From Candidatus Latescibacterota bacterium (GTDB taxonomy: Bacteria; Latescibacterota; UBA2968), in NCBI GenBank assembly GCA_965222605.1, contig OZ244960.1, positions 6,274,377-6,338,376 on the forward strand: a stretch of 64,000 nucleotides of DNA. The letters are read 5' to 3'. Shown here in pieces: positions 1 through 18,960 of the stretch. The notes beneath the pieces were generated by a model. That model did no database searches, was not told where the DNA came from, and was given only the letters and a program-made list of their open reading frames with translations. How positions within the stretch are numbered: position 1 is the first letter of the stretch; the number at the start of each line of letters is the position of its first letter. Both the position numbers and the translations under genes were made by a program.

Positions 1-166
1 TATACCCTTTGAAGATAAATTCTCCCATGTAGAACCTACGGGCGCCGGTCTGGCCAGATTAGATTTCTCCGCGTCTCCTACTTTGTGTAAATGGTTTTTC
101 CCGTTGCTGATGTTTGCTACATTTGGGGATACAGTAGAAGACCCCTCCGAGGCGTTTACCTTATGA
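1..166 (+). CDS. 3' end of an unknown gene running in from the window edge
   Basis: Frame 2 is open from base 2 (IPFEDKFSHVEPTG...DPSEAFTL) to TGA 164-166, which overlaps the next ATG at 163 (ATGA coupling). Confidence 0.6.
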   Translation, partial: IPFEDKFSHVEPTGAGLARLDFSASPTLCKWFFPLLMFATFGDTVEDPSEAFTL

Positions 167-1152
167 TTGACTATATTATTATTCCAGGTGTTGATGTTTC
201 TACGCTAAAGATCGTTCCACAACACGGGCGTTGGCTCAGAGATTGGTTATTGGACATTGAAACAGAAATCTCTAATGATTCTGTTTCTTCGGCATGGTGT
301 CTTCAAGGAATTTTGGTTGAGCTTGCTCTTTTCGGATGCGTCCAGACGGATTGGGAAGGGATCATCAGGGAATTATTAAAAGATGAAGAGGGAAAACCGC
401 TTGCGTACTCAGCAAGGTATGAAAAAAAATTACACAATTTCTCTCGTCAATGGAAACAAACGCCTATCCACGCTATCTATACGCATTGGTGGATTGATAG
501 ATACAATGGTTCTGACGCCAACAATATCAATGCCTATAGGGACTTGATCAAACGCTGTATTCAGCCAAGTGGTTGGATCTATAATCCCGATGTCAGTCCG
601 ACAGATCCCCGAACAAGAATGAAAGCTGAATTGATGCTCTCTCTTTCTATGGGCGTAGAAATACTGTCCGCTCAGGGCTTAGATCAGACCCAAAAGTCTC
701 TGTTTGAGGCCATCCTGAGTTCGACAAATGTAACTGGCTATTTGAGTGCAGAGTGTTTTAGAATGCGTACTCTCCAGATGCTGTCGGCTACCTATTTGGC
801 ACCTTATGGCCTGGGAGAAATTATTGATCCCTGTGAAGCAGAAGAAGGCTATTGCGATTTCTCAGTAGAATCAAAAGTCGATGATTATATGGGAACGGCC
901 AAAAGGACATCGCGCGACAAGCCCATACACTCAGCCATCTCTGCTTTGCATGCTCGTCAAATCGCAAAATATTGCGATTTAGAAACCCAACAAGCAGTCC
1001 AATCGAGACTCTCAAATTTTGCTGGCTATCTCTCAGCGTATCCACTGGATATTCCGGCGTTTCGGATGAGAGATATCGATGTTCCCTTTGGAACAGACCT
1101 CTCCCCTTTAGAGATATTTGCCGCCTCTCACATCATTTCTACCACCGGGTAA
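163..1152 (+). CDS. Hypothetical protein (~329 aa), possibly an alpha/alpha-toroid (prenyltransferase/terpene cyclase-like) fold
   Basis: Long ORF. ATG 163 follows GAGG and overlaps the upstream stop. Helical composition with CIQPSGW and CEAEEGY turns resembling QxxDGGW repeats; the fold is a guess. Confidence 0.75.
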   Translation: MIDYIIIPGVDVSTLKIVPQHGRWLRDWLLDIETEISNDSVSSAWCLQGILVELALFGCVQTDWEGIIRELLKDEEGKPLAYSARYEKKLHNFSRQWKQTPIHAIYTHWWIDRYNGSDANNINAYRDLIKRCIQPSGWIYNPDVSPTDPRTRMKAELMLSLSMGVEILSAQGLDQTQKSLFEAILSSTNVTGYLSAECFRMRTLQMLSATYLAPYGLGEIIDPCEAEEGYCDFSVESKVDDYMGTAKRTSRDKPIHSAISALHARQIAKYCDLETQQAVQSRLSNFAGYLSAYPLDIPAFRMRDIDVPFGTDLSPLEIFAASHIISTTG

Positions 1153-1153
1153 T

Positions 1154-3913
1154 ATGAACACATCCGAACAGAGTATCTTGCACTTTAAGGAGTTTGATGA
1201 TGCGGAACAGGTGCATCTCAAACTCAAGCCTTATATTCAGCCATTCGAGCAGCTTCTCGCTCAAGGCGAGTTGTACGGTCTTATAGGCGACAGTTACGCG
1301 AAGTATCCGTTCTCTAAGCCAGCAGATCAACAGGTTACACTCGCCCAAAAGAATCTCAAACAAGATCTGTTTAGAAGACTTGCTTATTGGGAACAAATCG
1401 GAAATTTGGCACTGGAGCCAACATTTCAGATTCTGCTCGAGTCAGAAAAACACTTAACCGACTTAAGTGGTCAAAGCAACTTCAAATTTCACAAATCTCG
1501 AAAGTTGCGATACGGGCCGCATGGCATACACGAGTATCGGGGCAAATTCTTTCCTCAGTTGGTCAAAGCCCTGATCAATTTTGCAGGCTTACAACCGGGG
1601 GAGGTCGTTATTGACCCCATGTGTGGAAGTGGCACGACGAATATTGAAGCCCGATCAATGGGTATGCAAACAATCGGTGCAGATCTCAATCCGCTGTCAG
1701 TGAAAATATCTCGTGTAAAGACTTCTGTTTTTGATCTTGATCTCGCGTCTATTAATACGCACTTGACACGATTTTTGACTGCGATCAAAGAGACTGATAT
1801 TCGCAAATCGGTCGCCGAATATCCCTGGAATAAAGACGACACCACCTATCTAAACAGATGGTTTGCCCCAGAGGCCCTCAAAGAGTTGGCGTTTATCCTT
1901 ACCAAAATTGCAGACACAACGGATAAAAAGACGCGGAGGTTTTTGCAGGTTTGCCTGAGCAATATTATCAGATCCATATCCTGGCAAAGAGAATCTGACT
2001 TGCGCGTCCGAAAGGAGATTACCAACTATACGCCGGGCATGGCAATACAACTCTTGTCCCAAGAAATCAAGAAGAGCATCGCAAAAATCACAGCTTATTT
2101 ATCTTGTTTTAACGGAATCAAGACATTCCCTCAGTTTACAATTCAAGAAGGTGATGCACGCAATATCCACACTGTTTTTCCGACGTGGGTAGGCAAATGT
2201 GATGTTCTTATTACATCGCCCCCTTATGCAATGGCCCTCCCATATATTGATACCGACCGCTTGAGTTTATCAACGTTAGGACTACTCCCTCGAGGTAGCC
2301 ACAGGGCGCGTGAGTATGAGATGATTGGAAATCGGGAGATCACAAATGCTCAACGGCAGGCATTATGGGAAAATTATCTGGCAAGAAGAAATGGGCTTCC
2401 CAAAAACGTAAGGGAGGTTGTCGAAACAGTTGACGAAGCAAATAAACGCGAGACGGTCGGGTTCCGCAGAAAGAACCTGTCTGCGCTTCTTGGGCGGTAT
2501 TTCCTGGATATGTCAGATGCCATGCAGAATGCACTCAAAATGATGCGTCCAGGCCATTTCGGTTTTTACGTCGTTGGAAACAACAGTACCACAATTGATG
2601 GCAAACGATTTGAAATTGAGACCGATAAACTGGTGTGGGAGATTGGAAAAAAGGTTGGCTGGAAGCAAAGGAAGATGCTCAATATGGAGTTGCTACCCTC
2701 GAGAGATATTTTTCGGAATAACAAGGGATCATCAGAATCGATCCTCTGGTTTCAAGCTTCAGGAGAGAAGCTCCAGAGAAAAGCCATCTACGGAGCGACG
2801 AGTAAGCAGATTGAGAATTTATCCAATGGAGATTGGGATTTTCACAAAGAGAATACGCAACAGCATTTACATGCAATCCATTCCTATCCTGCGCGATTCA
2901 TTCCGCAAATTCCTAATAAAGCCATAAGAACTTGGACCAATCCTGGGGAAGTTGTCCTCGATCCATTCTGCGGATGTGGAACGACACTTTTGGAAAGCGT
3001 TATTTTAGGACGGGAGGCCATAGGTATCGATAATAACGCTGTGGCTTGCTTGATCAGTCGGGCAAAGGTTGCTGATTATACAGATGAAGACATCAAAATC
3101 TTGACAGATTTCTTAAGCAAGATAGATGAGAAACTTTCGACGCTTTCCAAGCCGCTTGAACTCCCCGAATACCATAATGTATCATATTGGTTCAGTGATG
3201 ATGCCCTAAAAGACTTGGGTAAAATCAAGGCTATCATCAATCAATTACCAGAAAAACCAGGTGCCTTTGCGATGGCGATATTTTCGGCCATTATCGTTCG
3301 GGTTTCAAACCAAGATAGCGATACCCGTTATGCGCGAATAAAAAAATCCTATGACCAAGGCAATGCAATCGAATGGTTTAAAAGCCGCCTCGTAGATGCT
3401 CTCAAACGTCTCAAAGCAATCGCCACCTTATCCAAGGCTCAAGCAGTTGTTCACTGTATTGATGGTCGAGACCTGAGCGTTATACCTGATGGCAGCGTCA
3501 ATTTGATCGTGACTTCGCCACCTTATATCAACGCCTATGACTATCATAAATATCACCGTCACAGGTTGCACTGGATTGATGGAAGTGTTGAACTCGCGAG
3601 AGATACAGAAATCGGAAAGCATGACACGTTCACCCGCCCCAAAGCCACGCCAGATCGTTATTTTGAAGACATGCAAAAATGCTTTGCAGAGTGGCAACGG
3701 GTCTTAACTCCTGATGGAAAGGCTTTTGTTGTTATCGGCGATGGTATTGTAAATAAAACACCTGTTCCTGTAGGAGATAAGTTCGTTGAGATCATGGAAC
3801 AGTTAGGACTTAAGACCGCGGATCGATGGATACGAACGCTCCAAAAATCTAAGAAATCCTTTAACCAACATGGTCGAATTGACAAAGAGCATGTCCTCTT
3901 ATTTGAGAAATGA
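1154..3913 (+). CDS. Fused double DNA methyltransferase (two amino-MTase domains, SPPY type, likely m4C)
   Basis: Two copies of motif I (DPMCGSGTT, DPFCGCGTT), each followed by motif IV TSPPY, and preceded by HGIHEYRGKFFPQ / HAIHSYPARFIPQ. ATG 1154 lies 1 nt after the upstream stop. Confidence 0.9.
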   Translation: MNTSEQSILHFKEFDDAEQVHLKLKPYIQPFEQLLAQGELYGLIGDSYAKYPFSKPADQQVTLAQKNLKQDLFRRLAYWEQIGNLALEPTFQILLESEKHLTDLSGQSNFKFHKSRKLRYGPHGIHEYRGKFFPQLVKALINFAGLQPGEVVIDPMCGSGTTNIEARSMGMQTIGADLNPLSVKISRVKTSVFDLDLASINTHLTRFLTAIKETDIRKSVAEYPWNKDDTTYLNRWFAPEALKELAFILTKIADTTDKKTRRFLQVCLSNIIRSISWQRESDLRVRKEITNYTPGMAIQLLSQEIKKSIAKITAYLSCFNGIKTFPQFTIQEGDARNIHTVFPTWVGKCDVLITSPPYAMALPYIDTDRLSLSTLGLLPRGSHRAREYEMIGNREITNAQRQALWENYLARRNGLPKNVREVVETVDEANKRETVGFRRKNLSALLGRYFLDMSDAMQNALKMMRPGHFGFYVVGNNSTTIDGKRFEIETDKLVWEIGKKVGWKQRKMLNMELLPSRDIFRNNKGSSESILWFQASGEKLQRKAIYGATSKQIENLSNGDWDFHKENTQQHLHAIHSYPARFIPQIPNKAIRTWTNPGEVVLDPFCGCGTTLLESVILGREAIGIDNNAVACLISRAKVADYTDEDIKILTDFLSKIDEKLSTLSKPLELPEYHNVSYWFSDDALKDLGKIKAIINQLPEKPGAFAMAIFSAIIVRVSNQDSDTRYARIKKSYDQGNAIEWFKSRLVDALKRLKAIATLSKAQAVVHCIDGRDLSVIPDGSVNLIVTSPPYINAYDYHKYHRHRLHWIDGSVELARDTEIGKHDTFTRPKATPDRYFEDMQKCFAEWQRVLTPDGKAFVVIGDGIVNKTPVPVGDKFVEIMEQLGLKTADRWIRTLQKSKKSFNQHGRIDKEHVLLFEK

Positions 3914-3971
3914 GTGAATCGGAACACGATTCTCAACCTTGTGATCTATCTTGACATAAGGAATCGAAAGC

Positions 3972-5024
3972 ATGAACCAAGAATCACGCTGTCCAATCTG
4001 GAATACACCAGCTTCCGGAGAATCTCTTTTTAATAAAGGGATAGATTCGCCTCGTGCGGGCGGAAGGTACCTCATTACTCTGGAAGCTATTACACTCTTG
4101 CCGCAAATTGATGACCGCGTTAAGGCGCGCTTGACCTCGTGGTTGGTCGATCAGCGACGATTGGGCGTCGAATGTCCGGAAATATTCCAGGAAACGATCA
4201 AGATGGTGGAAAAGCAAGAAGATTTGTCCGTCCACGAGCGTGCAGATCGACTTCTCCAGTATATTGGAGATCAAACTGAAGAGATTGGTCACCGTGTTTC
4301 GTTCACAGTTCCCGATATGTCCAACACAGCGATAGCAGCGTGGTCGGAATCTGTCGAACGGCAGGAGGTAGAAGTTCTATTAAATTATTTGGGTGAGCAG
4401 GGTTGGATAAAAAGCAGTACAGAGTATAAACATAATACCCTAACAGTCGAGGGATACGCTCGACTTGAAGAACTTGAGACAACGAATGCCGAATCATCAA
4501 AAGGCTTTGTAGCCATCTCAGATGATTTGACGACTCTACCGACGGAGCCTGGGAAGAAGGTATTAGACGCGGAATCGAAGATGCGGGATGTTTTCATAAT
4601 TCATGGACACGATGATGGCACAAAAGAAACTGTCGCTCGATTTATCGAGCGACTCGGGCTAAAGCCTATTATCCTTCATGAACAACCCAACCAGGGACAA
4701 ACGATTATTGAGAAATTTGAGCGATATGCTGAGGTTGCATTCGCCATTGCTCTCCTGACTCCGGACGATACTGGTGGCCTATCGAAAGACGAACAGTCTC
4801 TCAAACCACGCGCACGACAAAATGTCATATTTGAGTTTGGATATTTTATGGGCAAGTTAGGCCGCCAGCGAGTTTGTGCATTAAAAAAAGAGAATGTCGA
4901 GACACCCTCCGACTATGACGGTGTGCTATATATTGCCTTTGATGAATCTGGCGCATGGAAGATGGAACTTGTGAAAGAATTGAAGAACGCGGGATTTGAT
5001 GTTGATGCGAATCTGGCAATCTGA
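3972..5024 (+). CDS. TIR-like domain protein (CAP12/Pycsar-type nucleotide-binding TIR) with N-terminal winged-helix-like region
   Basis: C-terminal VFIIHGHD...LGLKPIILHEQPNQGQTIIEKFE...LLTPDD...RARQNVIFEFGYFMGKLGR...PSD signature. Confidence 0.9.
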   Translation: MNQESRCPIWNTPASGESLFNKGIDSPRAGGRYLITLEAITLLPQIDDRVKARLTSWLVDQRRLGVECPEIFQETIKMVEKQEDLSVHERADRLLQYIGDQTEEIGHRVSFTVPDMSNTAIAAWSESVERQEVEVLLNYLGEQGWIKSSTEYKHNTLTVEGYARLEELETTNAESSKGFVAISDDLTTLPTEPGKKVLDAESKMRDVFIIHGHDDGTKETVARFIERLGLKPIILHEQPNQGQTIIEKFERYAEVAFAIALLTPDDTGGLSKDEQSLKPRARQNVIFEFGYFMGKLGRQRVCALKKENVETPSDYDGVLYIAFDESGAWKMELVKELKNAGFDVDANLAI

Positions 5025-5159: not shown

Positions 5160-5486
5160 CTATAGCTTGATACAATCTAACCTCAGCCGAAACCCCAGAG
5201 CGGAAATAATAGCCATCAGATTGTCGAGTTTCGGTTTGCTGCAACTTGAAAGCACACGATAGAGATGTTCGCGGTTCAGTCCGGCGCGTTTTGCCAATGC
5301 ACCGACCCCACCTTGTGCCTTGGCGACGTCCCGCAAGGCCAATAACAGCCCATCAGTCTCACCACTTGCTTCACACTCATCCAGTGAGACTTCCAGATAA
5401 ACCCGAGCTTCTTCGGGGTCTTTGAGAGATTTTATCAGTCCTTCTTCGTAACTGACCGTGTGTTTCAAAACCTGTTTTTTAGTCAT
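5160..5486 (-). CDS. Putative addiction-module antidote protein (HI1420-type HTH antitoxin)
   Basis: LKDPEEARVYL...LLLALRDVAKAQGGVGALAKRAGLNREHLYRVLS...PKLDNL pattern. Confidence 0.85.
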   Translation of the reverse strand: MTKKQVLKHTVSYEEGLIKSLKDPEEARVYLEVSLDECEASGETDGLLLALRDVAKAQGGVGALAKRAGLNREHLYRVLSSCSKPKLDNLMAIISALGFRLRLDCIKL

Positions 5487-6205: not shown

Positions 6206-7423
6206 ATGGCTGAACCCATTCTACGCCAGTTGATATTGCATCGTTTCCGTAGCCTTCGGTTGGAACAAGTAGAATTCGACAACCCGACCTTTCTCGTCGG
6301 TCAAAATGGCTCTGGCAAGAGTAACTTCGCCGATGCCTTCGCATTCCTCGCAGAGGCAATGGCCTCCCCACTGCAAGCAGTTCTCGATCATCGTGGGGGA
6401 TTTGCCGCAGTTGCCCATCGAAGCTCTGCAAGGGGCCGTCCATCAAACTTGGGCTTGTCAGTGGTGTTGGAGAATCTGGATGGCGATACACCCCAGGCGC
6501 GATATGCATTCGAGTTACGCGCCCGGAGAAGCTACGGCTTTGAGGTTGTGCGCGAGCAATGCATCGTGCAGAAGTCAGATGGATCGAGTACCTGGTTTGA
6601 TCGCGCCATGTCCCCCAAAGGTTCTTTCATAGGTTGGAAAAGCCGCAGGTATTCTCCTAAACCGCTCATGGAACCGAGCGCCCTTGCCCTACCTCTGATC
6701 GGAGGCGACGTGCGCTTTCAGGCGATTTCGCGATTCCTGTCGGAAATGCGCGTGTATCGGATTGACCCGGCTGCTCTGCGAACAATGCGAGATGCGGATG
6801 GGGGTGTGCGCTTACATTCTGATGGCAGCAATGCAGCCAGCGTGCTACGCGAGATCCAACGCGAATCTCCGTATGCCTGGAGGCAGATTCTTGAAATTCT
6901 CGAAAGTATTGTCCCCGGTACCATCGGCGTCCAGCCCAAAAAGCAAGGTAACAAGCTCACCCTGGAGTTCACCCAGGATTGGGCACAGACGAAGCCCGTG
7001 AAGTTCGAGGCCCTCAACATTTCCGACGGCACGTTGCGAGCACTGGGACTGCTCGCAGCGGTTTTTCAGCGTCCAGCACCCTCGTTGCTCGTCATTGAAG
7101 AACCGGAAGCCACAATCCATCCAGGAGCTCTTGGCTCTATTCTGGATATACTACGACATGCTGGGCGTTTTATGCAGGTCGTAGTGACGACACATAGTCC
7201 GGATGTTCTCGATGCCAAATGGATTGAAGATCGCCACTTGAGGATTGTGAACTGTGATAAAGGAGCGACGCGGATTAGCCGAGTCTCGCCAGCGACACGG
7301 GAGGCCCTGAGCGAGCACCTGATGGGCGCAGGCGAGTTGCTCCGCTCGAACGCTCTGACGCCCGCCGATTTGTTCGACCATAATCCACGCCAACTCAGGT
7401 TGTTCGAGGATGACCTCTCATGA
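6206..7423 (+). CDS. ABC/AAA ATPase (AAA_21, COG4637-like)
   Basis: Walker A GQNGSGKS, signature ISDGT, Walker B LLVIEEPE, H-loop TTHS. Confidence 0.9.
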   Translation: MAEPILRQLILHRFRSLRLEQVEFDNPTFLVGQNGSGKSNFADAFAFLAEAMASPLQAVLDHRGGFAAVAHRSSARGRPSNLGLSVVLENLDGDTPQARYAFELRARRSYGFEVVREQCIVQKSDGSSTWFDRAMSPKGSFIGWKSRRYSPKPLMEPSALALPLIGGDVRFQAISRFLSEMRVYRIDPAALRTMRDADGGVRLHSDGSNAASVLREIQRESPYAWRQILEILESIVPGTIGVQPKKQGNKLTLEFTQDWAQTKPVKFEALNISDGTLRALGLLAAVFQRPAPSLLVIEEPEATIHPGALGSILDILRHAGRFMQVVVTTHSPDVLDAKWIEDRHLRIVNCDKGATRISRVSPATREALSEHLMGAGELLRSNALTPADLFDHNPRQLRLFEDDLS

Positions 7424-8210: not shown

Positions 8211-9329
8211 ATGGGCCTCAAGATTCAAAACCTTACACTAAAACATTTTCGCGCATTCCGAGAATTGCGTATTAATGGCTTGGGCCGCGTGAACCTCATC
8301 ACTGGAAAAAACAACACCGGAAAGTCGTCGGTGCTCGAGGCATTACATATTTTCGCTCATGGCGCAGCACTTGACGTAATTAGCCACGTACTTGAACGGC
8401 GCGAAGGAAACATTAGAGTAGAAGGGGAAGGGCGTACTGCTGATAGGGAGCGCCTAATTCAAATTTCCACTCTGTTCTATGGGTTCCCCGAACCTTCAGA
8501 TTTCACAGAGCCGATCGTCATTTCCACCAAAGACAATTCATGCCCTATGCGGTTGACGATGCAGGTAGGCTGGTTTTCGGAGGAACGTGGCACCGACGGC
8601 AACTTGCGGTTGGTTCCTTTGCAAGCAGACTCCTTTGACGAGCCAGATGACGTCGCAGCATTGGTAGTTGAGACACAAAATAAAAAAAAGCGAATCCTTG
8701 CACTGGAAAGGCTTGAGCGATACTCTTACCTGAGCAGAATTTCCGCACCTGGTTCTGAAACCCAAATACCCTGCATCTTTGTCAGCCCTTATGATGAACG
8801 GACAGCGATATTGGCTCCCTTATGGGACAGGATTTCGCTAACAAAATTCGAGAATCATGTCGTTGAGGCTTTGCAAATCATCGAACCACGGATATCTGCT
8901 GTCAATATGATATATGATGAAAACAGTAACATAGGACGCAAGGCGATTGTCCGGATTGAGAATATTGATCGACCTGTACCGCTACGGTTGTTGGGCGACG
9001 GCGTGAATCGCCTTCTCGACATAGCCCTCTCGCTCATCAACGCTCGCGGGGGGCTCTTGTTAATAGATGAATTTGAAAACGGCTTGCATCACACAGTCCA
9101 GTTCGATGCCTGGAAGACTATATTCCTCTTGGCCAGGGAACTCGACATACAGGTCTTCGCCACTTCGCACAGTTGGGACGCGGTGGAGGCATTTCAGCAG
9201 GCTTCGGCAGAAATACCTGAAGAAGGAGCTCTCGTGCGTCTGACCCGAAGAGGTGAAGAGATCATTCCCACTGTATTCTCAGAAGATGAACTGGCTATTG
9301 TGACTCGTAACAGAGTCGAGGTACGCTGA
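8211..9329 (+). CDS. ABC/AAA ATPase (AAA_15/AAA_21 family)
   Basis: Walker A GKNNTGKS, signature LGDG, Walker B LLLIDEFENGLH, ATSHS, C-terminal EVR. Confidence 0.9.
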   Translation: MGLKIQNLTLKHFRAFRELRINGLGRVNLITGKNNTGKSSVLEALHIFAHGAALDVISHVLERREGNIRVEGEGRTADRERLIQISTLFYGFPEPSDFTEPIVISTKDNSCPMRLTMQVGWFSEERGTDGNLRLVPLQADSFDEPDDVAALVVETQNKKKRILALERLERYSYLSRISAPGSETQIPCIFVSPYDERTAILAPLWDRISLTKFENHVVEALQIIEPRISAVNMIYDENSNIGRKAIVRIENIDRPVPLRLLGDGVNRLLDIALSLINARGGLLLIDEFENGLHHTVQFDAWKTIFLLARELDIQVFATSHSWDAVEAFQQASAEIPEEGALVRLTRRGEEIIPTVFSEDELAIVTRNRVEVR

Positions 9330-13161: not shown

Positions 13162-16100
13162 ATGCACAGACGAGCGAAATCAATAATCTGGATCATGGTC
13201 AGCGCGGGCATTGTGCTGGCGGTGGTGGCGATACTGGTCGCGGGTGGCTATGCCAATGGTCTTTTGCGCGGGTTGGCGCAACGCGCCCTGTCCCGGCAAG
13301 GGGATGAGATCTATCTGATTGGTGAGATCCAGGGCAATCCGCTGGGGGATTGTCGCATTGTAGATGTGCAAGTTGGAGATTGGGTGCAGGTAGATACGCT
13401 CGATGTGGCGTACAGTTTTTGGAGCCTGATAAGGGGTAAGGCTTTGGTCCGTCGGCTGCGGTTGTCGGGGATTGAAATGCGGATTGACGCTTCTGGCGAA
13501 GGGACCGAGACGCCGAGGTGGGATGCTCCGCCACCCCTGAATTTAGATATCGAGTCGCTGGAGATTGCGGATGCCAATATTGTAGTTGATGGCACACAGG
13601 TACGCGATCTCGCCCTAAAGGGCGCTATTTTTGCGGGAGAATCGGAGTGCCGTTTGATCCTGGAGCGTTTTCGTTCGGTGCAATTCGATCCGCCGCTGGA
13701 GATAACCAATCTGTCTGGTATTGCCATTCTGCAGGGCGGTCACTTGCAATTGAACGATGTGGCGCTGCATACCCGTGAATCTCGTATTTTGCTGCGTGGG
13801 TCGGTGCGGCAATTGGATAATCCCGAGGTGGATCTCGTAGTGGAAGCCGATTCTTTGTGGCTGGCAGATCTCAGAAATCTGGTCAATCTGCCCACACGTG
13901 CTGCGCAGGTGCGTGGAAACGTGAAAGGTAGCCTGCAATCCCTTGTTACAGAACTGGTTGTGAAATATGAAGAAGCTTCAATTGCGTTTAATGGCGTTAT
14001 GGGAATTGCGCCGTTTGCATTGCGCGGAGATGTGGTCTTTAAGATCGAGACCGATGATCTTATTTCGTTGGGATACACTGGTGGATTTGACACCGATTTA
14101 CCCCGTATCAGCACACGCCTGGACGGGATGATTACTTTTGCAATAGATTCTTCTGGCGTGGAGAGTGCTGTTGCCGAGGGTGTTTTTCGGCGCGTGCAGT
14201 TTGGGGATGCGCGATTCGATTTTGTGCGTCTTGCCGGTAATTTGGCAAATGGCCTGTTGCAGGCACAGGTCACTGCTAACGGACCAAGTGGCAATATAGT
14301 GGGTAGTGGTGAAGTGCGATTGACCTCCAGGGATGGCGAATGGGAAATGCGATTCCGCGATCTGCACACTGGCCATTTTCCCGGCGTGCCCGAAAAAGTC
14401 GGGCGGACGACGGGGCGTATTGAGGGTGCGAGATATGTAGATCAACGACTTTTTATCGATCATTTTGAGACGTCTTTGCAGAATTGGGGAACGCACATCA
14501 ACGGAAATGGGCAATTGCATTTTGAGGGAGAAAAGCTGGCTATTGCAGGGAATATCCAGGCGAAGGTCGCGTTACCCTTTTTGACGGGTACAGTAAAGTG
14601 GGGCACATCACTGACGCTTGAGGGCAATGTGGATGGCATCGCGGGCGGCGAGTTGACCATTGAATTGGCGGGGGATATTGTGGGCAATGCTGCGGCAGAC
14701 AGTTTGCGCGTTTCTGCATTGGTCGATTCTGAGTGGGCATCTGATATTCGCGCTGATCTATCGGGCGCGGGTGGGGTGTTTTCCGCTCAGGGGCGTATTG
14801 ATCGGCATTCTGAGGGCCAATGGCTGATGGATGTGCAGGATTTAGAGGCGATAGGCGAGGTGGTTGATCTGGATTTGTCGGGTACGTTGACCCTATCGGG
14901 TACATGGTCGGGAACATTAGATACGCCCGGTTTTACTGCACAAGGTAGCGCAGATAGTCTCGTTGTGGTGGGCATCCCGCTTCAGAATGTTGGGATTGAG
15001 ACGCGATGGACGCGCCCAGATTCGGGGGCTATCGCCTTGCGAATGGATCGCTTAACCTGGGGGGATCGGTCTTTGCAGGCGGTGTTCTTAGATGCCGTGT
15101 ATGCACGCGGCGAAACATCATTTTTTTTCGGTAGCGACGAGCAGGTGGATAACCGCGTCCTTTTTTTGGGACGCGTAGAGCAAAAAGAAGACCATTTTCA
15201 GGTGGCAATGGATTCACTTTACGTTAAGGCCGATCAAGTGGTGTTGCACAACGAGGGGCCTGTTCGGTTTGCGTATTCGCCATCTCACGGCGTTCACATC
15301 GGGCATTTGGTGCTTTCTGGGCCAGCGGGGCGTCTGATCGCGCGAGATCAACAGGGTTTTCAGGCGACTGTAGAGGTGTTGTTAAAAGATCTGGATTTGC
15401 GCCCCTGGGCGTTTCTGGCGGGCGTTTCAGATGTGGGTGGTGTTCTCAATGGGGAAATAATTTTTGCTGGCACATTGACCGATCCACTCGTTTTGGGTCA
15501 ATTCGCGCTCGCAAATGGTAAAATATCAGGTGTGGGATTCGATAGTGCCGCAGGAGAGGTGTCCCTGGGCAATGACAGGATACACTTTGACGTGAAAGTC
15601 GTACCCGATGGAGATGAGGTCCTGGCACTGTTTGGCTACTTTCCCATTGCAGGTGCAGGTGATATGCATCTGCGCGCTCGGTCTGAGGGGATCGCGCTCA
15701 AGACACGCCAGAACTTAACGGAGAAAAAAACGGAATTGGCCGGGATAAAACGATTCGAGGGATTGACATTTGGCACAGTGCCAAACGCGTTTTTCGGTGC
15801 CGCTGAGGGGATTTCAGGGATGTTCTCGTTCGATCTGGAAGCGCGTGGTCGTTTTGAGCAACCGGACATTCGAGGGGTGCTCGAAATTCGAGATGGGGCG
15901 TTCCACCTGCCCGATCTGCATCGGTCTTACACACCTGTTTTTGGACGGGTCGTGGTTGGAGATGGAAAAATTCAGATTGACAGCCTTGCGATTGGGGCTT
16001 CGGCAAATATTTCCGGCGATATAATGCTCGAGGGTTTTTTGCCGAGCAAATGGAATTTATCTGCACAATTCCGCGATTTTGAACCGGTTGCCCGGCCCGA

Positions 16101-17046
16101 ACTACAACTCGTAATAGATGGACAATTGCAGTTCACCAGCACGCCGCAGGGCAACAATGTTAAGGGCAAACTGGCGATGAAACAGGCAGAGATTCGCCTG
16201 GCGGAATTGCTCGGGGTCCCGAGCTTGGCGACGAAACAGGCAGAGATTCGCTTGACGGAATTGTTCGAAGGACCGGGTACGGAAATGCCGCCGTTTCTGA
16301 GGGATCCTGAAATACACCTGCAAGTGTCTGCCGACAGACAGGTGTGGTTGCGCGACCCGACCTTTGAGGTGGAAATCGGGGGCGATTTGGATGTGATAAA
16401 AAATCGCGAAGATTCGCGTATTTACGGCACGATGTCGAGCCGCCGGGGCAATTACATCTGGCAAAACCACCACTTGCGTATTACACGAGGTGAAATTCAA
16501 TTTCAAGGCAGACCCGACTGGAACCCCGATCTGGATATTCGCGCCGAGACGCGCGTGCGAGCTGTGATTACAGAGGGCGAGCCGCCAAAGCCTGTTGATA
16601 TTATTGTCACAGTGGGGGGGACATTGACGTATCCGCAGATTTCGTTTGATAGCGATTCGTCATTGGGAGGGGATGCGGGGAATATCGCATCTCTGCTGTT
16701 GACTGGCAGACCGGCTGATCAATTTCAGTTTTCCGGCGGGCACACGCTGGACCTGGTTTTGGGAGTTGCTGCAAATCGCCTGGGGCGACACATTGGACAA
16801 AAACTGCGTCTGGATCTGGTGGAAATCGATATTGGCGAGGGCAATATCTCCAGGATTCGATTGGGCAAGTATATTGGCAACAGGTTGTTTATGAGTTATG
16901 CAAAGGATATTTCGAGCACGGCTTATGAAGCGGCGATGGAGTTTGAGATCTGGCCAGAAGTGATATTGGAAGCGAGTCAGATAGAAGAGGAAGATACGCG
17001 ACGCAGGCGAGGATCGGTAGGGTTATTCTGGAAGAAAGAGTGGTGA
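13162..17046 (+). CDS. tamB: Translocation and assembly module TamB (DUF490)
   Basis: N-terminal membrane anchor, long beta-rich body, C-terminal NPDLDIRA...GGTLTYP...GKYIGNRLFMSY. Confidence 0.88.
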   Translation: MHRRAKSIIWIMVSAGIVLAVVAILVAGGYANGLLRGLAQRALSRQGDEIYLIGEIQGNPLGDCRIVDVQVGDWVQVDTLDVAYSFWSLIRGKALVRRLRLSGIEMRIDASGEGTETPRWDAPPPLNLDIESLEIADANIVVDGTQVRDLALKGAIFAGESECRLILERFRSVQFDPPLEITNLSGIAILQGGHLQLNDVALHTRESRILLRGSVRQLDNPEVDLVVEADSLWLADLRNLVNLPTRAAQVRGNVKGSLQSLVTELVVKYEEASIAFNGVMGIAPFALRGDVVFKIETDDLISLGYTGGFDTDLPRISTRLDGMITFAIDSSGVESAVAEGVFRRVQFGDARFDFVRLAGNLANGLLQAQVTANGPSGNIVGSGEVRLTSRDGEWEMRFRDLHTGHFPGVPEKVGRTTGRIEGARYVDQRLFIDHFETSLQNWGTHINGNGQLHFEGEKLAIAGNIQAKVALPFLTGTVKWGTSLTLEGNVDGIAGGELTIELAGDIVGNAAADSLRVSALVDSEWASDIRADLSGAGGVFSAQGRIDRHSEGQWLMDVQDLEAIGEVVDLDLSGTLTLSGTWSGTLDTPGFTAQGSADSLVVVGIPLQNVGIETRWTRPDSGAIALRMDRLTWGDRSLQAVFLDAVYARGETSFFFGSDEQVDNRVLFLGRVEQKEDHFQVAMDSLYVKADQVVLHNEGPVRFAYSPSHGVHIGHLVLSGPAGRLIARDQQGFQATVEVLLKDLDLRPWAFLAGVSDVGGVLNGEIIFAGTLTDPLVLGQFALANGKISGVGFDSAAGEVSLGNDRIHFDVKVVPDGDEVLALFGYFPIAGAGDMHLRARSEGIALKTRQNLTEKKTELAGIKRFEGLTFGTVPNAFFGAAEGISGMFSFDLEARGRFEQPDIRGVLEIRDGAFHLPDLHRSYTPVFGRVVVGDGKIQIDSLAIGASANISGDIMLEGFLPSKWNLSAQFRDFEPVARPELQLVIDGQLQFTSTPQGNNVKGKLAMKQAEIRLAELLGVPSLATKQAEIRLTELFEGPGTEMPPFLRDPEIHLQVSADRQVWLRDPTFEVEIGGDLDVIKNREDSRIYGTMSSRRGNYIWQNHHLRITRGEIQFQGRPDWNPDLDIRAETRVRAVITEGEPPKPVDIIVTVGGTLTYPQISFDSDSSLGGDAGNIASLLLTGRPADQFQFSGGHTLDLVLGVAANRLGRHIGQKLRLDLVEIDIGEGNISRIRLGKYIGNRLFMSYAKDISSTAYEAAMEFEIWPEVILEASQIEEEDTRRRRGSVGLFWKKEW

Positions 17047-17067
17047 GGAAAAATAAAATATAGGGGA

Positions 17068-17106
17068 AAAAACTGCCTCCCGAGATTTTTGGGGTGGCAG
17101 TTTTTC
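17068..17106. terminator. Bidirectional intrinsic terminator between tamB and the asparagine synthase-like gene
   Basis: AAAAACTGCC...GGCAGTTTTT inverted repeat between convergent genes. Confidence 0.75.
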
Positions 17107-17107
17107 A

Positions 17108-18808
17108 TTATGGGGTAATCTTTAGAAGCTCAGCCACTTCTTCTGATGTGCGGTATTTGCCGTCAAAGAGTTGGAGAAGATAGAGTTGGTAGGTGAGGTA
17201 GCGCCCCAGAATGATAGTGTGGTCTTCACCTGCGAGGTGGCGTTGCCAGAGTTTGGAGGTTTCAGATGTGTTGTAGAGAAGATGGTCGCACAAATTTTTA
17301 CCCGGCGATTGGCGCAACCAATTCGCGTAATCGGCAAAGGTATGGGACGGGCGGTTGTGCAATCGGGTGAGACCCCGCAGGATTTTGACGGTCCAGGAAG
17401 AATGGGATAAGGGAAATCCCGTGGCTTGATAGGGAATATTTTTGAAATATTCGGGAAAGGTTTCGAGAAGCATTTGTCGGTAGAGGCGATTGTTGGCTTT
17501 TTGTTGCAGGGGAATAGAATAGAGAAATTCCTGAACCTGATTGTCGAGGAATGGCAAGCGGTATTCGAGGCCGTGCAAAAGTCCCAGCCGGGGACCGTGC
17601 AGGGTGAACCCACGCATGCGCCAGTCTATGTAAAAAGCATGTGCTGATCCCGCCTTGTTAAATGCGGTTTCCAAATGTTGGATCACGTCGCTATTTGCCC
17701 GGATGTGTAGCTTATTTTTCAGGTAGGCTGAGAGTTGGTTGGGGCGAAACAGATGGCCTGCACCTGCTAACCCGTCGCCTCCTGCGCCGTTGAGGCAGAT
17801 ATCACAGGCTTCTTTCTGTTGCTTGAGGTGTTCAATACCGTGCATATGGAGCAGGTCGAGTGCGCCATCGGCATACCACACGCCGGAGATTCTCGGCAAG
17901 AGCCAATTTTTATTGTGGAGGGGGAGGACGGTATGTGGCGCGTTTTTTACAGATGCTGCTTGAGCTGCAATGCGAACATCGGCACTGTCGGGATGGCCAA
18001 ATGTGAAGGTTTTAGGTACTCGGGACATGGCGGCGAGAATCGCACGCGAATCGAGGCCTCCGCTGAGAGCGAGACCGGTTTGCGACGTGGTTCTCTGTTC
18101 TACGGCAGTGCGAAAGCGCGCGCCCAATTCATGTGCCAATTCGCGTTGGCTGTGATGCCGAGCAAGGGGGACAATTTCATCCCACGACCAGTAGCGTCGC
18201 TGTGTAAGACTGCCGTCCGAGATGCGAAACGTCATTTTCGTTGCAGCAGGCACGGGCGCGACGCCTTTGAGCCAGGTGCGATCAGAAGGCAATTGTCCTG
18301 TGGCAAAAAATATGTCGCGGGAAATGGGGTCAATCGCAGGCGAAAACCCGGGCAGCGCAAGAAAAGCTTTGGTCTGAGAGGCCCATGCAATGCGATTGCC
18401 CAGGCGCGTCCAGTAGAGCGGGCGCAAGCCATAGCGATCAGTGACAATGTGCAGTTCATTTTTGTGCGTATCGAAAACCACCCCGGCAAAAAGGCCATCG
18501 ATACGGTTCAGTAGTTCGCGCTCGTCCGTGATGGCATGAACCAAAAATTCGGGGTCAGAAGTAGCAGATCGAGCCAGCGTGGCGCGATCAAAAAATTCAC
18601 CGTCGAGCCAGGCAATATGTCCCGTTTGCGTCTGGCAAACAGGGGGGGTGGCACGCCAATCTGGCGCGAACGCGACGCCCGCAATGTGCGGGGCAACGAC
18701 GAAGGGATGCGCTTTTTGGTGTACGACAAGGCTATCTGCCATGCGCGTGAGTTCGCGGGTGAGTTCGCGGAAGTCAAGAGGCGATTGGGATGTGAATCCT
18801 GCGAGCAT
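17108..18808 (-). CDS. Asparagine synthase-related protein (degenerate Ntn domain plus PP-loop synthetase domain)
   Basis: DRYGLRPLY, LSGGLDSR, GAGGD, EYRLPFLD. No N-terminal catalytic Cys. Confidence 0.85.
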   Translation of the reverse strand: MLAGFTSQSPLDFRELTRELTRMADSLVVHQKAHPFVVAPHIAGVAFAPDWRATPPVCQTQTGHIAWLDGEFFDRATLARSATSDPEFLVHAITDERELLNRIDGLFAGVVFDTHKNELHIVTDRYGLRPLYWTRLGNRIAWASQTKAFLALPGFSPAIDPISRDIFFATGQLPSDRTWLKGVAPVPAATKMTFRISDGSLTQRRYWSWDEIVPLARHHSQRELAHELGARFRTAVEQRTTSQTGLALSGGLDSRAILAAMSRVPKTFTFGHPDSADVRIAAQAASVKNAPHTVLPLHNKNWLLPRISGVWYADGALDLLHMHGIEHLKQQKEACDICLNGAGGDGLAGAGHLFRPNQLSAYLKNKLHIRANSDVIQHLETAFNKAGSAHAFYIDWRMRGFTLHGPRLGLLHGLEYRLPFLDNQVQEFLYSIPLQQKANNRLYRQMLLETFPEYFKNIPYQATGFPLSHSSWTVKILRGLTRLHNRPSHTFADYANWLRQSPGKNLCDHLLYNTSETSKLWQRHLAGEDHTIILGRYLTYQLYLLQLFDGKYRTSEEVAELLKITP

Positions 18809-18960
18809 AAAAAAATACCTATTTAAATACCCACTGACGTTCGTCCGAGATTACATGTATCCAATATAAGGAAAACTTTATGATTTCACTTTTCATTTTT
18901 CGCTTTTATAGGTACAATAGGACAGTTCTAATATCGTCGCATTTAACCACAGAGGTCGAA

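Follow-up and report, generated by a model that had tools for sequence, protein, structure and literature searches.

A mobile cassette pairing a predicted LAGLIDADG-fold protein and an acidic α/α-toroid protein with two DNA methyltransferases: a candidate Type II-like restriction-modification system

Beside PD-(D/E)XK and HNH, the folds used by restriction endonucleases (REases) are GIY-YIG, PLD and half-pipe. A survey refers in its abstract to five REase folds, PD-(D/E)XK and HNH being named there, and lists 56 characterised enzymes as unassigned (Orlowski and Bujnicki 2008, PMC2441816). Among the heterodimeric enzymes, BseYI (CCCAGC) is mentioned as unpublished work in excerpts of two papers in Nucleic Acids Research (NAR), with separately expressible subunits of 58.3 and 37.1 kDa (PMC3017599, PMC1950550). 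The LAGLIDADG fold belongs to another group of enzymes, the homing endonucleases; according to passages of the review by Taylor and Stoddard (PMC3384342), the acidic residue that ends each LAGLIDADG motif binds the metal, and WhiA, a non-catalytic protein, has lost this residue. Here we describe a locus at the beginning of a 64,000-nt stretch of Candidatus Latescibacterota bacterium DNA (assembly GCA_965222605.1, contig OZ244960.1, positions 6,274,377 to 6,338,376 of the forward strand; hereafter the window), which takes up the final 64 kb of one contig of 6.34 Mb; the upstream DNA was read from the same contig. Nucleotides 1–3913 of the window, together with 1.4 kb upstream, probably constitute a horizontally mobile, Type II-like restriction-modification (R-M) cassette, whose nuclease side would consist of two proteins of 515 and 329 amino acids (aa). 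We read the locus as an R-M system with a previously undescribed two-subunit nuclease side. In the titles, abstracts and passages covered by our full-text literature searches, no LAGLIDADG-fold restriction enzyme is described.

The conserved unit is a 5.3-kb cassette, which starts 1.4 kb upstream of the window and consists of three genes here and of four genes where the methyltransferase (MTase) is split (Table 1). The first gene, encoding the 515-aa protein, has a GTG start preceded by GAGGGGAGGAGG. Its stop codon overlaps the start codon of the 329-aa gene as ATGA, indicating translational coupling, and the third gene, for a 919-aa fused double MTase, follows almost without a gap. A preliminary description, made from the letters of the window, had supposed that the system reaches further upstream; all positions and junctions that it gave, including the 58-nt gap to the next gene, are correct. 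The upstream DNA revealed that the open reading frame (ORF) cut by the window edge is the end of the 515-aa gene.

The predicted structure of the 515-aa protein (predicted local distance difference test (pLDDT) 89.9, predicted template modelling score (pTM) 0.89, with only residues 417–441 low) contains two helices of the LAGLIDADG type. Helix 69–81 ends in FFGLYSGDGAKG (..GLYSGDG, D81), and helix 344–356 ends in SGLYLAEGSTPK (..GLYLAEG, E356), so that each helix is closed by an acidic residue at the metal-binding position of the LAGLIDADG superfamily. Y78, G80, D81, G82, K84, G351, Y353, A355, E356 and G357 are invariant in all 34 close relatives compared, and an alignment of 22 relatives that reaches down to 23% identity keeps the same ten residues in every member. 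K234-G235, G434/G437/G439 and an ExTGxG..R motif are also invariant. Two conserved hairpin loops, RRPFKKGARxPGGSSRSDE (227–247) and LKNGVPMLRGGxSGDGKLRT (423–442), are basic and rich in glycine, and the family is neutral to basic (median isoelectric point (pI) 7.6). The protein has 363 database relatives, with about 55–60% identity across phyla. Many of the pairs formed by relatives of the 515-aa and 329-aa proteins lie on contigs of equal length, and two pairs have neighbouring locus tags.

The LAGLIDADG Pfam models (LAGLIDADG_1, _2, _3 and Hom_end) match none of the 34 family members, even at E ≤5; a PDB search with the single protein gave nothing relevant, and one with the family profile no LAGLIDADG chain; and the protein has no Pfam, PADLOC or NCBIfam match at the thresholds used. 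Foldseek returned no significant match for the model (best E 0.15), with homing endonucleases at E 0.18–1.7. Those language-model neighbours that carry a family name belong to LAGLIDADG_3 clusters (scores 0.81–0.85, to be taken as leads only). When the profiles of the N- and C-terminal halves were aligned to each other, the two motifs came into register, at a score that is not significant (E 0.27). Given the lack of a Pfam LAGLIDADG match and of a significant half-to-half alignment, the predicted LAGLIDADG assignment applies at the level of the fold and the active-site motif, not of the sequence family.

WhiA is among the fold matches as well, and LAGLIDADG folds have been recruited for non-catalytic purposes, as reported for WhiA (PMC3384342). 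One could imagine an R-M system in which the LAGLIDADG-fold protein is mainly a reader or scaffold, and in which the toroid contributes to catalysis or provides it altogether; each subunit might, for instance, nick one of the strands, as happens in the heterodimeric Type IIT enzymes. However, both canonical acidic positions are invariant across the superfamily of the 515-aa protein, unlike in WhiA. We consider a reader or scaffold role unlikely, and return to it below.

The 329-aa protein is the second conserved component. It belongs to 0 Pfam families at E ≤0.01, no nuclease model of Pfam, PADLOC or NCBIfam matches it, and the NCBIfam search gave only a chance-level match to a Rep helicase. 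Neither the protein nor its family profile found anything relevant among PDB sequences. It has 191 database relatives at E ≤1e-3; among the 120 listed, the lengths are 308–354 residues, and all of the named members are called hypothetical. Its predicted structure, based on a 32-sequence alignment (pLDDT 85.1, pTM 0.86), is an (α/α)6 barrel of the kind found in prenyltransferase and terpene cyclase toroids. The top Foldseek matches are the beta subunits of RabGGTase and GGTase-III (E 0.01, template modelling (TM) score 0.57), and the language-model neighbours with a family name are prenyltransferase or squalene-cyclase clusters (scores again 0.81–0.85, and leads only). A distant homologue (L021) passes the Pfam Prenyltrans model with 33.8 bits, where 26.5 are required (E 3e-8). 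The predicted fold and the beta-subunit matches bear out the preliminary description, which had guessed an α/α toroid from a "QxxxGW-like turn"; this turn is the QPSGW motif, which is retained in distant toroid homologues. The same description had seen no nuclease motif in this protein, in agreement with the model searches, and had named the identity of ORF 163–1152 with a known REase as a point to check; no such match was obtained in Pfam, PADLOC or NCBIfam.

The toroid family is acidic, with a median pI of 5.4 and 112 of 120 members below 6.5. E53, E156, E197, D252, R152, K238, W24, W64 and Y140 are invariant. Two loops, KVDDYMGTAKRxxRD (238–252) and FRxRDxxxPFGT (300–311), are strongly conserved and modelled with low confidence, a combination typical of segments that become ordered only upon binding a partner; the KVDDYMGTAKR loop is a candidate interface to the partner protein or to DNA. 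The set of invariant acidic, basic and aromatic residues is typical of an active or ligand-binding pocket, and thus speaks for a share of the toroid in catalysis, as the reader or scaffold alternative would have it. The acidity of the family speaks against that alternative, and we know of no nuclease with an α/α-toroid fold.

The 919-aa protein contains two SPPY motifs (aa 355–358 and 788–791), each about 190–200 aa past a DPxCGxGTT motif I (aa 154–162 and 603–611). It matches Pfam N6_N4_Mtase (E 4e-35) and two different full-length MTase_II models of PADLOC, one over aa 97–510 (E 1e-78) and the other over aa 554–919 (E 2e-76). Judged by these motifs and matches, it is a fusion of two complete amino-methyltransferases, predicted to act on N4 of cytosine or N6 of adenine, as the preliminary reading of a fused double SPPY methyltransferase had it.

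A different fusion was observed in a protein of 1243 aa (P0243), which comes from one 5-kb assembly and joins a toroid-family domain (38% identity to that of the window) to a double MTase (49% identity). Since the corresponding genes are 1 nt apart in the window, this fusion could be real or could be the artefact of a one-base indel.

To see how far these genes keep together, we compared 16 close loci, that is, genome loci encoding a relative of the 329-aa protein, and scanned their ORFs by hidden Markov model (HMM) searches. The loci come from Latescibacterota, Poribacteria, Bacillota, Bacteroidota, Chloroflexota, Nitrospirota and Bdellovibrionota, with Alicyclobacillus, Lachnospiraceae, Roseburia, Frisingicoccus, other Clostridia, Vicingus, Anaerolineae, Chloroflexia, Nitrospiraceae and Bdellovibrionales among the members. 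The 515-aa gene lies directly upstream of the toroid gene, on the same strand, in 15 of the 16; the exception (L018) is a 3.8-kb contig on which no more than the final third of the toroid gene is present. In 14 loci, two MTase modules adjoin, as a fused protein in seven and as two genes in the other seven, downstream in six of these and upstream in one. The preliminary description had made its proposal depend on whether homologues of the 329-aa gene neighbour double MTases, and in these 14 of 16 loci they do. Both conserved families keep the gene order across phyla, and the junctions are thus more than chance. No other neighbour recurs: a Pfam scan of 114 flanking ORFs revealed unrelated housekeeping genes and transposases.

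The association extends to distant relatives. A profile search of 1.84 billion representative proteins yielded 105 relatives, 48 of them at E ≤1e-30, including full-length subfamilies of 466–566 aa. The alignment of all subfamilies together had no conserved stretch, and a narrower alignment was used for the search of distant loci. One distant subfamily is represented by six loci, from three Poribacteria genomes and from Micrarchaeota, Thaumarchaeota and Nanoarchaeota genomes. In these loci, a LAGLIDADG-like gene is followed by an overlapping or abutting gene of 347–405 aa, with two MTase genes adjoining; the sixth locus is a 2-kb fragment in which one MTase is visible. The second gene is detectably homologous to the toroid in three of the loci, the thaumarchaeal one with an hhalign probability of 97%. 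One Poribacteria second gene has a weak profile score (11%) and keeps the QPSGW-YN and PFG..PLE motifs, and another second gene is the homologue mentioned above that reaches the Prenyltrans threshold by itself. The pairing of a LAGLIDADG-fold protein, a toroid and two MTases is thus an ancient one, shared by bacteria and archaea.

The cassette is horizontally mobile. In a blastn comparison with the nearest relative (L003), only positions 13626–18925 of our locus record (L002) are similar, with 92.9% identity over 5303 nt. The similarity begins 7 nt into the 515-aa gene and ends 12 nt beyond the stop codon of the MTase. The shared DNA is thus exactly that of the cassette genes, within unrelated flanks, which indicates that the cassette moves as one unit. 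In Type II R-M systems, a nuclease gene stands beside one or more cognate MTase genes and moves with them; the corresponding arrangement, with the nuclease-fold gene, was found in 14 of the 16 close loci and in all five complete distant loci.

The distribution of the cassette is patchy. Only one of 30 sampled relatives has a trace of it: in a genome of the same genus (G016; L067, G016:C1:2970001-2984000), the first 213 codons of the 515-aa gene remain, with a 24-codon MTase remnant 4.5 kb away. Of 72,556 plasmids, one carries the cassette, the mobilizable Priestia aryabhattai plasmid p1 (NZ_CP129634.1; L019/L020). There, the cassette extends across the origin of the circular record; its neighbours are an AAA ATPase gene and a McrC-family gene, a McrBC-like pair, and both unknown genes are annotated as "hypothetical protein". 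IMG/VR contains one full-length cassette locus, and none of 50,697 phage records contains any. A role as a homing endonuclease does not fit this pattern, the family being found in cassettes of cellular genomes and on a plasmid.

In two relatives of the cassette, it is the nuclease-fold gene that is broken. In L003 (6458–8004), the 515-aa homologue has become a pseudogene: its frame shifts near codon 212, and a stop replaces the invariant W407. The ORFs for the toroid and the MTase have kept their full length. In L015, only codons 281–509 of the 515-aa gene are left, with intact MTases. Loss of the nuclease before the MTase is the pattern expected of an R-M system, although there are two such cases only, and the G016 remnant retains pieces of both genes.

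These observations bear on an alternative in which the 515-aa and 329-aa pair is an accessory of the MTase, serving target selection, regulation or further DNA modification, so that the cassette would be a modification module and not a defence system. The single 1243-aa fusion of a toroid with a double MTase would suit such a role, and so would the habits of α/α toroids, which are usually enzymes acting on small molecules or sugars, as are all 50 fold matches listed; cleavage, moreover, has so far only been inferred. Against this, the gene broken in L003 and L015 is that of the nuclease-fold protein and not that of the MTase, as expected of the dangerous partner, and the metal-ligand positions are invariant. 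The patchy distribution, and the presence of the cassette in defence islands and beside McrBC on a plasmid, argue in the same direction, and the fusion is a single sequence that may stem from an indel. We therefore regard a purely accessory function as improbable, and prefer an R-M system.

In the mechanism that we propose for this R-M system, the 515-aa protein would be a single-chain, pseudo-dimeric LAGLIDADG-fold nuclease, with D81 and E356 binding the catalytic metals and with its basic glycine-rich hairpin loops probably helping at the DNA. If it works the way homing endonucleases do, both strands would be severed across the minor groove, giving 3′ overhangs of 4 nt. Asymmetric sites are usually served by two MTase modules, either fused or separate; the two-domain design of the MTase, and the known two-MTase systems, suggest that each half methylates one strand of an asymmetric site and thereby protects the host DNA. 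The intrinsic asymmetry of a single-chain LAGLIDADG enzyme would fit the need for two different methyltransferases. The toroid is translationally coupled and always present yet acidic, and for this reason we see its likely part in activating, restraining or informing the nuclease as a subunit, and not in being the main DNA binder. We favour an obligatory partner with an activating, specificity or methylation-reading role, which it may exert via the basic glycine-rich loops of the nuclease. Gene coupling and co-conservation suggest that the 515-aa and 329-aa proteins form a complex.

A more specific proposal, which we put forward tentatively, is that the family adds a sixth catalytic fold to those of the restriction enzymes. 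A double-LAGLIDADG nuclease, active as a single chain, would then have been domesticated as a short-site, methylation-sensitive enzyme that depends on the acidic toroid, old enough to comprise bacterial and archaeal subfamilies and perhaps with the architecture of the commercial enzyme BseYI. The aromatic and acidic pocket of the toroid may read a flipped base, or otherwise license cutting. Neither protein matches a Pfam, PADLOC or NCBIfam model of the five counted REase folds, and the predicted folds differ from these.

Several points weigh against the R-M interpretation. LAGLIDADG enzymes of the homing type read about 14–40 bp, a poor fit to a site guarded by one methyl group per strand. One close locus (L016, a 4.3-kb contig) has the nuclease-fold and toroid genes without an MTase in the 1.4 kb present downstream. 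P0243 fuses the toroid to the MTases and not to the nuclease, a hint that methylation may be the side on which the toroid acts. We found no biochemical or genetic test of the family and no recognition site for it.

The subunit sizes raise the question of whether the family might correspond to an enzyme type that has already been isolated, namely the structurally unpublished heterodimer BseYI, an identity that would be compatible with the R-M interpretation and would mean that REBASE and NEB already know the enzyme itself. The window proteins have masses of 58.0 and 37.2 kDa, the family medians are 58.0 and 37.3 kDa, and the family is present in Bacillota. The match is one of sizes only, and the Priestia homologues measure 58.3 and 38.75 kDa. 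CCCAGC is not notably avoided in the present genome (observed/expected ratio (O/E) 0.89, rank 169 of 2080), and its ratio is 0.73–0.94 in the other genomes compared. The PADLOC restriction-enzyme models match neither protein, and the 5′ overhang of BseYI, derived from the published cut notation, would be unexpected for a LAGLIDADG centre. GsaI, a neoschizomer of BseYI with the site CCCAGC, leaves a 3′ overhang. Taken together, an identity with BseYI is possible, if rather doubtful. BseYI was not found in those supplements of PMC2441816 that were searched.

The same data touch on the reader or scaffold alternative. The resemblance between the subunits of BseYI, 58.3 and 37.1 kDa in the excerpt (PMC3017599), and those encoded here would favour it, since shared catalysis would permit cut geometries beyond the canonical LAGLIDADG centre and hence a 5′ overhang. 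However, this link to BseYI is again by sizes only. An active LAGLIDADG-fold nuclease supported by the toroid thus remains the interpretation that we prefer.

We also searched for the footprint of a recognition site in the whole-genome k-mers. GTMKAC words are strongly avoided (GTAGAC O/E 0.07, GTCGAC 0.08, GTATAC 0.10), followed by GTGCAC (0.20) and by the GRGCYC words GAGCCC (0.27) and GGGCCC (0.32); these are probably footprints of other R-M systems. The strongest asymmetric avoidance is that of CCAAG/CTTGG (O/E 0.56), which is uniform over the flanking bases. As a site for the cassette it was rejected: it is equally avoided in two genomes of the same genus without the cassette (0.47 and 0.54), and not in the genome with the remnant (1.06), so the signal belongs to something else.

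The gene that follows the cassette encodes a 350-aa TIR-domain protein, which matches CAP12-PCTIR_TIR (CAP12/Pycsar-type, E 2e-41) and five PADLOC PDC-S35 models (E 3e-79 to 7e-47). The preliminary description had seen in it a possible abortive backup of the methyltransferase operon. Such a five-gene system, with an abortive-infection gene wired to the methyltransferase operon, would agree with the common strand and the short distance, within which no convincing terminator or promoter was found, and defence genes in islands can cooperate. Nevertheless, none of the 16 close loci and none of the six distant ones has a TIR homologue, and the DNA shared with the nearest relative ends 47 nt short of the TIR gene, which thus lies outside it. 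The PADLOC "S" candidates are single-gene systems, and the protein matches its own candidate family there, PDC-S35, at E 3e-79. We consider a TIR-containing system very improbable: the TIR gene is a separate, neighbouring defence gene and not a cassette member. Of the preliminary picture as a whole, the multi-gene methyltransferase system extending upstream has held, and the membership of TIR has not. The N-terminal region of the TIR protein (aa 1–206, window 3972–4590), about 200 residues without a Pfam family and covered only partly by the PDC-S35 models, from aa 110, may be a sensor domain.

The region as a whole is a defence island, in which the TIR gene, a STAND-like NTPase gene and downstream ATPase genes are other tenants (Table 1). 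The 1518-aa STAND-like protein matches nSTAND_NTPase5 at E 5e-6, below the threshold, and PADLOC PDC-M54A at E 2e-19 over aa 146–561. It was considered as a system member and discarded, since none of the 16 close loci has a homologue. Upstream of it lie metH and a small gene with a DUF433 domain.

Table 1. Coordinates of the cassette and of neighbouring features (window positions unless another record is named)
Feature	Position	Strand	Remarks
515-aa LAGLIDADG-fold gene, full	G000:C1:6272995-6274542 = L002 13619-15166		begins 1381 nt before the window
515-aa LAGLIDADG-fold gene, 3′ end (last 54 codons and stop)	1..166	+	frame open from base 2; TGA 164-166
329-aa acidic α/α-toroid gene	163..1152	+	ATG 163-165; TAA 1150-1152
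QPSGW motif of the toroid, aa 134-138	562..576	+	Q134 invariant, G137 and W138 nearly so
Loop KVDDYMGTAKR of the toroid, aa 238-248	874..906	+	highly conserved; pLDDT <50 for aa 239-250
Fused double amino-methyltransferase gene, 919 aa	1154..3913	+	ATG 1 base after TAA of the 329-aa gene
First MTase half	1613..2227	+	motif I DPMCGSGTT nt 1613-1639 to SPPY nt 2216-2227
Second MTase half	2960..3526	+	motif I DPFCGCGTT nt 2960-2986 to SPPY nt 3515-3526
TIR-domain protein gene, 350 aa	3972..5024	+	starts 58 nt past the MTase stop
STAND-like NTPase gene, 1518 aa	L002 8755-13311 = G000:C1:6268131-6272687		ends ~300 nt upstream of the cassette
HigA-like antidote (antitoxin) protein, dnstrm_HI1420	5160-5486	-	
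AAA_21/AAA_15 ATPase (ABC-type)	6206-7423	+	PADLOC HEC-01A, E 4e-106
Second ABC-type ATPase	8211-9329	+	PDC-M38A/AbiLi, E 2e-93

If our interpretation is correct, such an enzyme would connect R-M systems with homing endonucleases via the LAGLIDADG fold, so far regarded as confined to homing and its derivatives. It would, moreover, be a natural, compact and asymmetric cutter, with a short specificity and a logic different from that of meganucleases, and the toroid would be the first α/α-toroid protein to take part in DNA restriction. The members of both families are annotated only as "hypothetical protein", and the families lack a Pfam, NCBIfam or PADLOC model, so that defence finders see these loci as orphan methyltransferases only.

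Fused two-module methyltransferases are exemplified by M.FokI and M.Mva1269I. The 919-aa protein resembles such two-domain Type II enzymes in being a single polypeptide with two complete MTase modules, and relatives of the cassette have the modules as separate genes. The toroid differs from the prenyltransferase beta subunits, the class II terpene cyclases and the other (α/α)6 toroids in its acidity, in the absence of a prenyl or terpene pathway context, and in its partners, a nuclease-fold protein and DNA MTases. The 515-aa protein, in turn, has no detectable sequence similarity to the monomeric double-motif LAGLIDADG homing endonucleases (I-DmoI, PI-PfuI, PI-SceI and I-SceI type). It has about three times the size of I-DmoI; an additional beta domain is present at the N-terminus, and an insertion of about 200 aa separates the two halves. 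Unlike homing endonuclease genes, its gene does not reside in an intron or intein, always occurs together with genes for the toroid and for two MTases, and is almost never found in phages. As a whole, the locus resembles the heterodimeric Type IIT/IIA R-M systems (BbvCI, Bpu10I and BseYI, and the class III systems BtsI and BsrDI), with which, as far as the excerpts describe them, it shares a nuclease side encoded by two different genes next to each other, a pair of MTases as suits an asymmetric site, and a compact, mobile layout (PMC3017599, PMC1950550). The BtsI and BsrDI subunits contain PD-(D/E)XK catalytic motifs according to the excerpt (PMC3017599), whereas the predicted folds of the nuclease side here are those of LAGLIDADG and of an α/α toroid.

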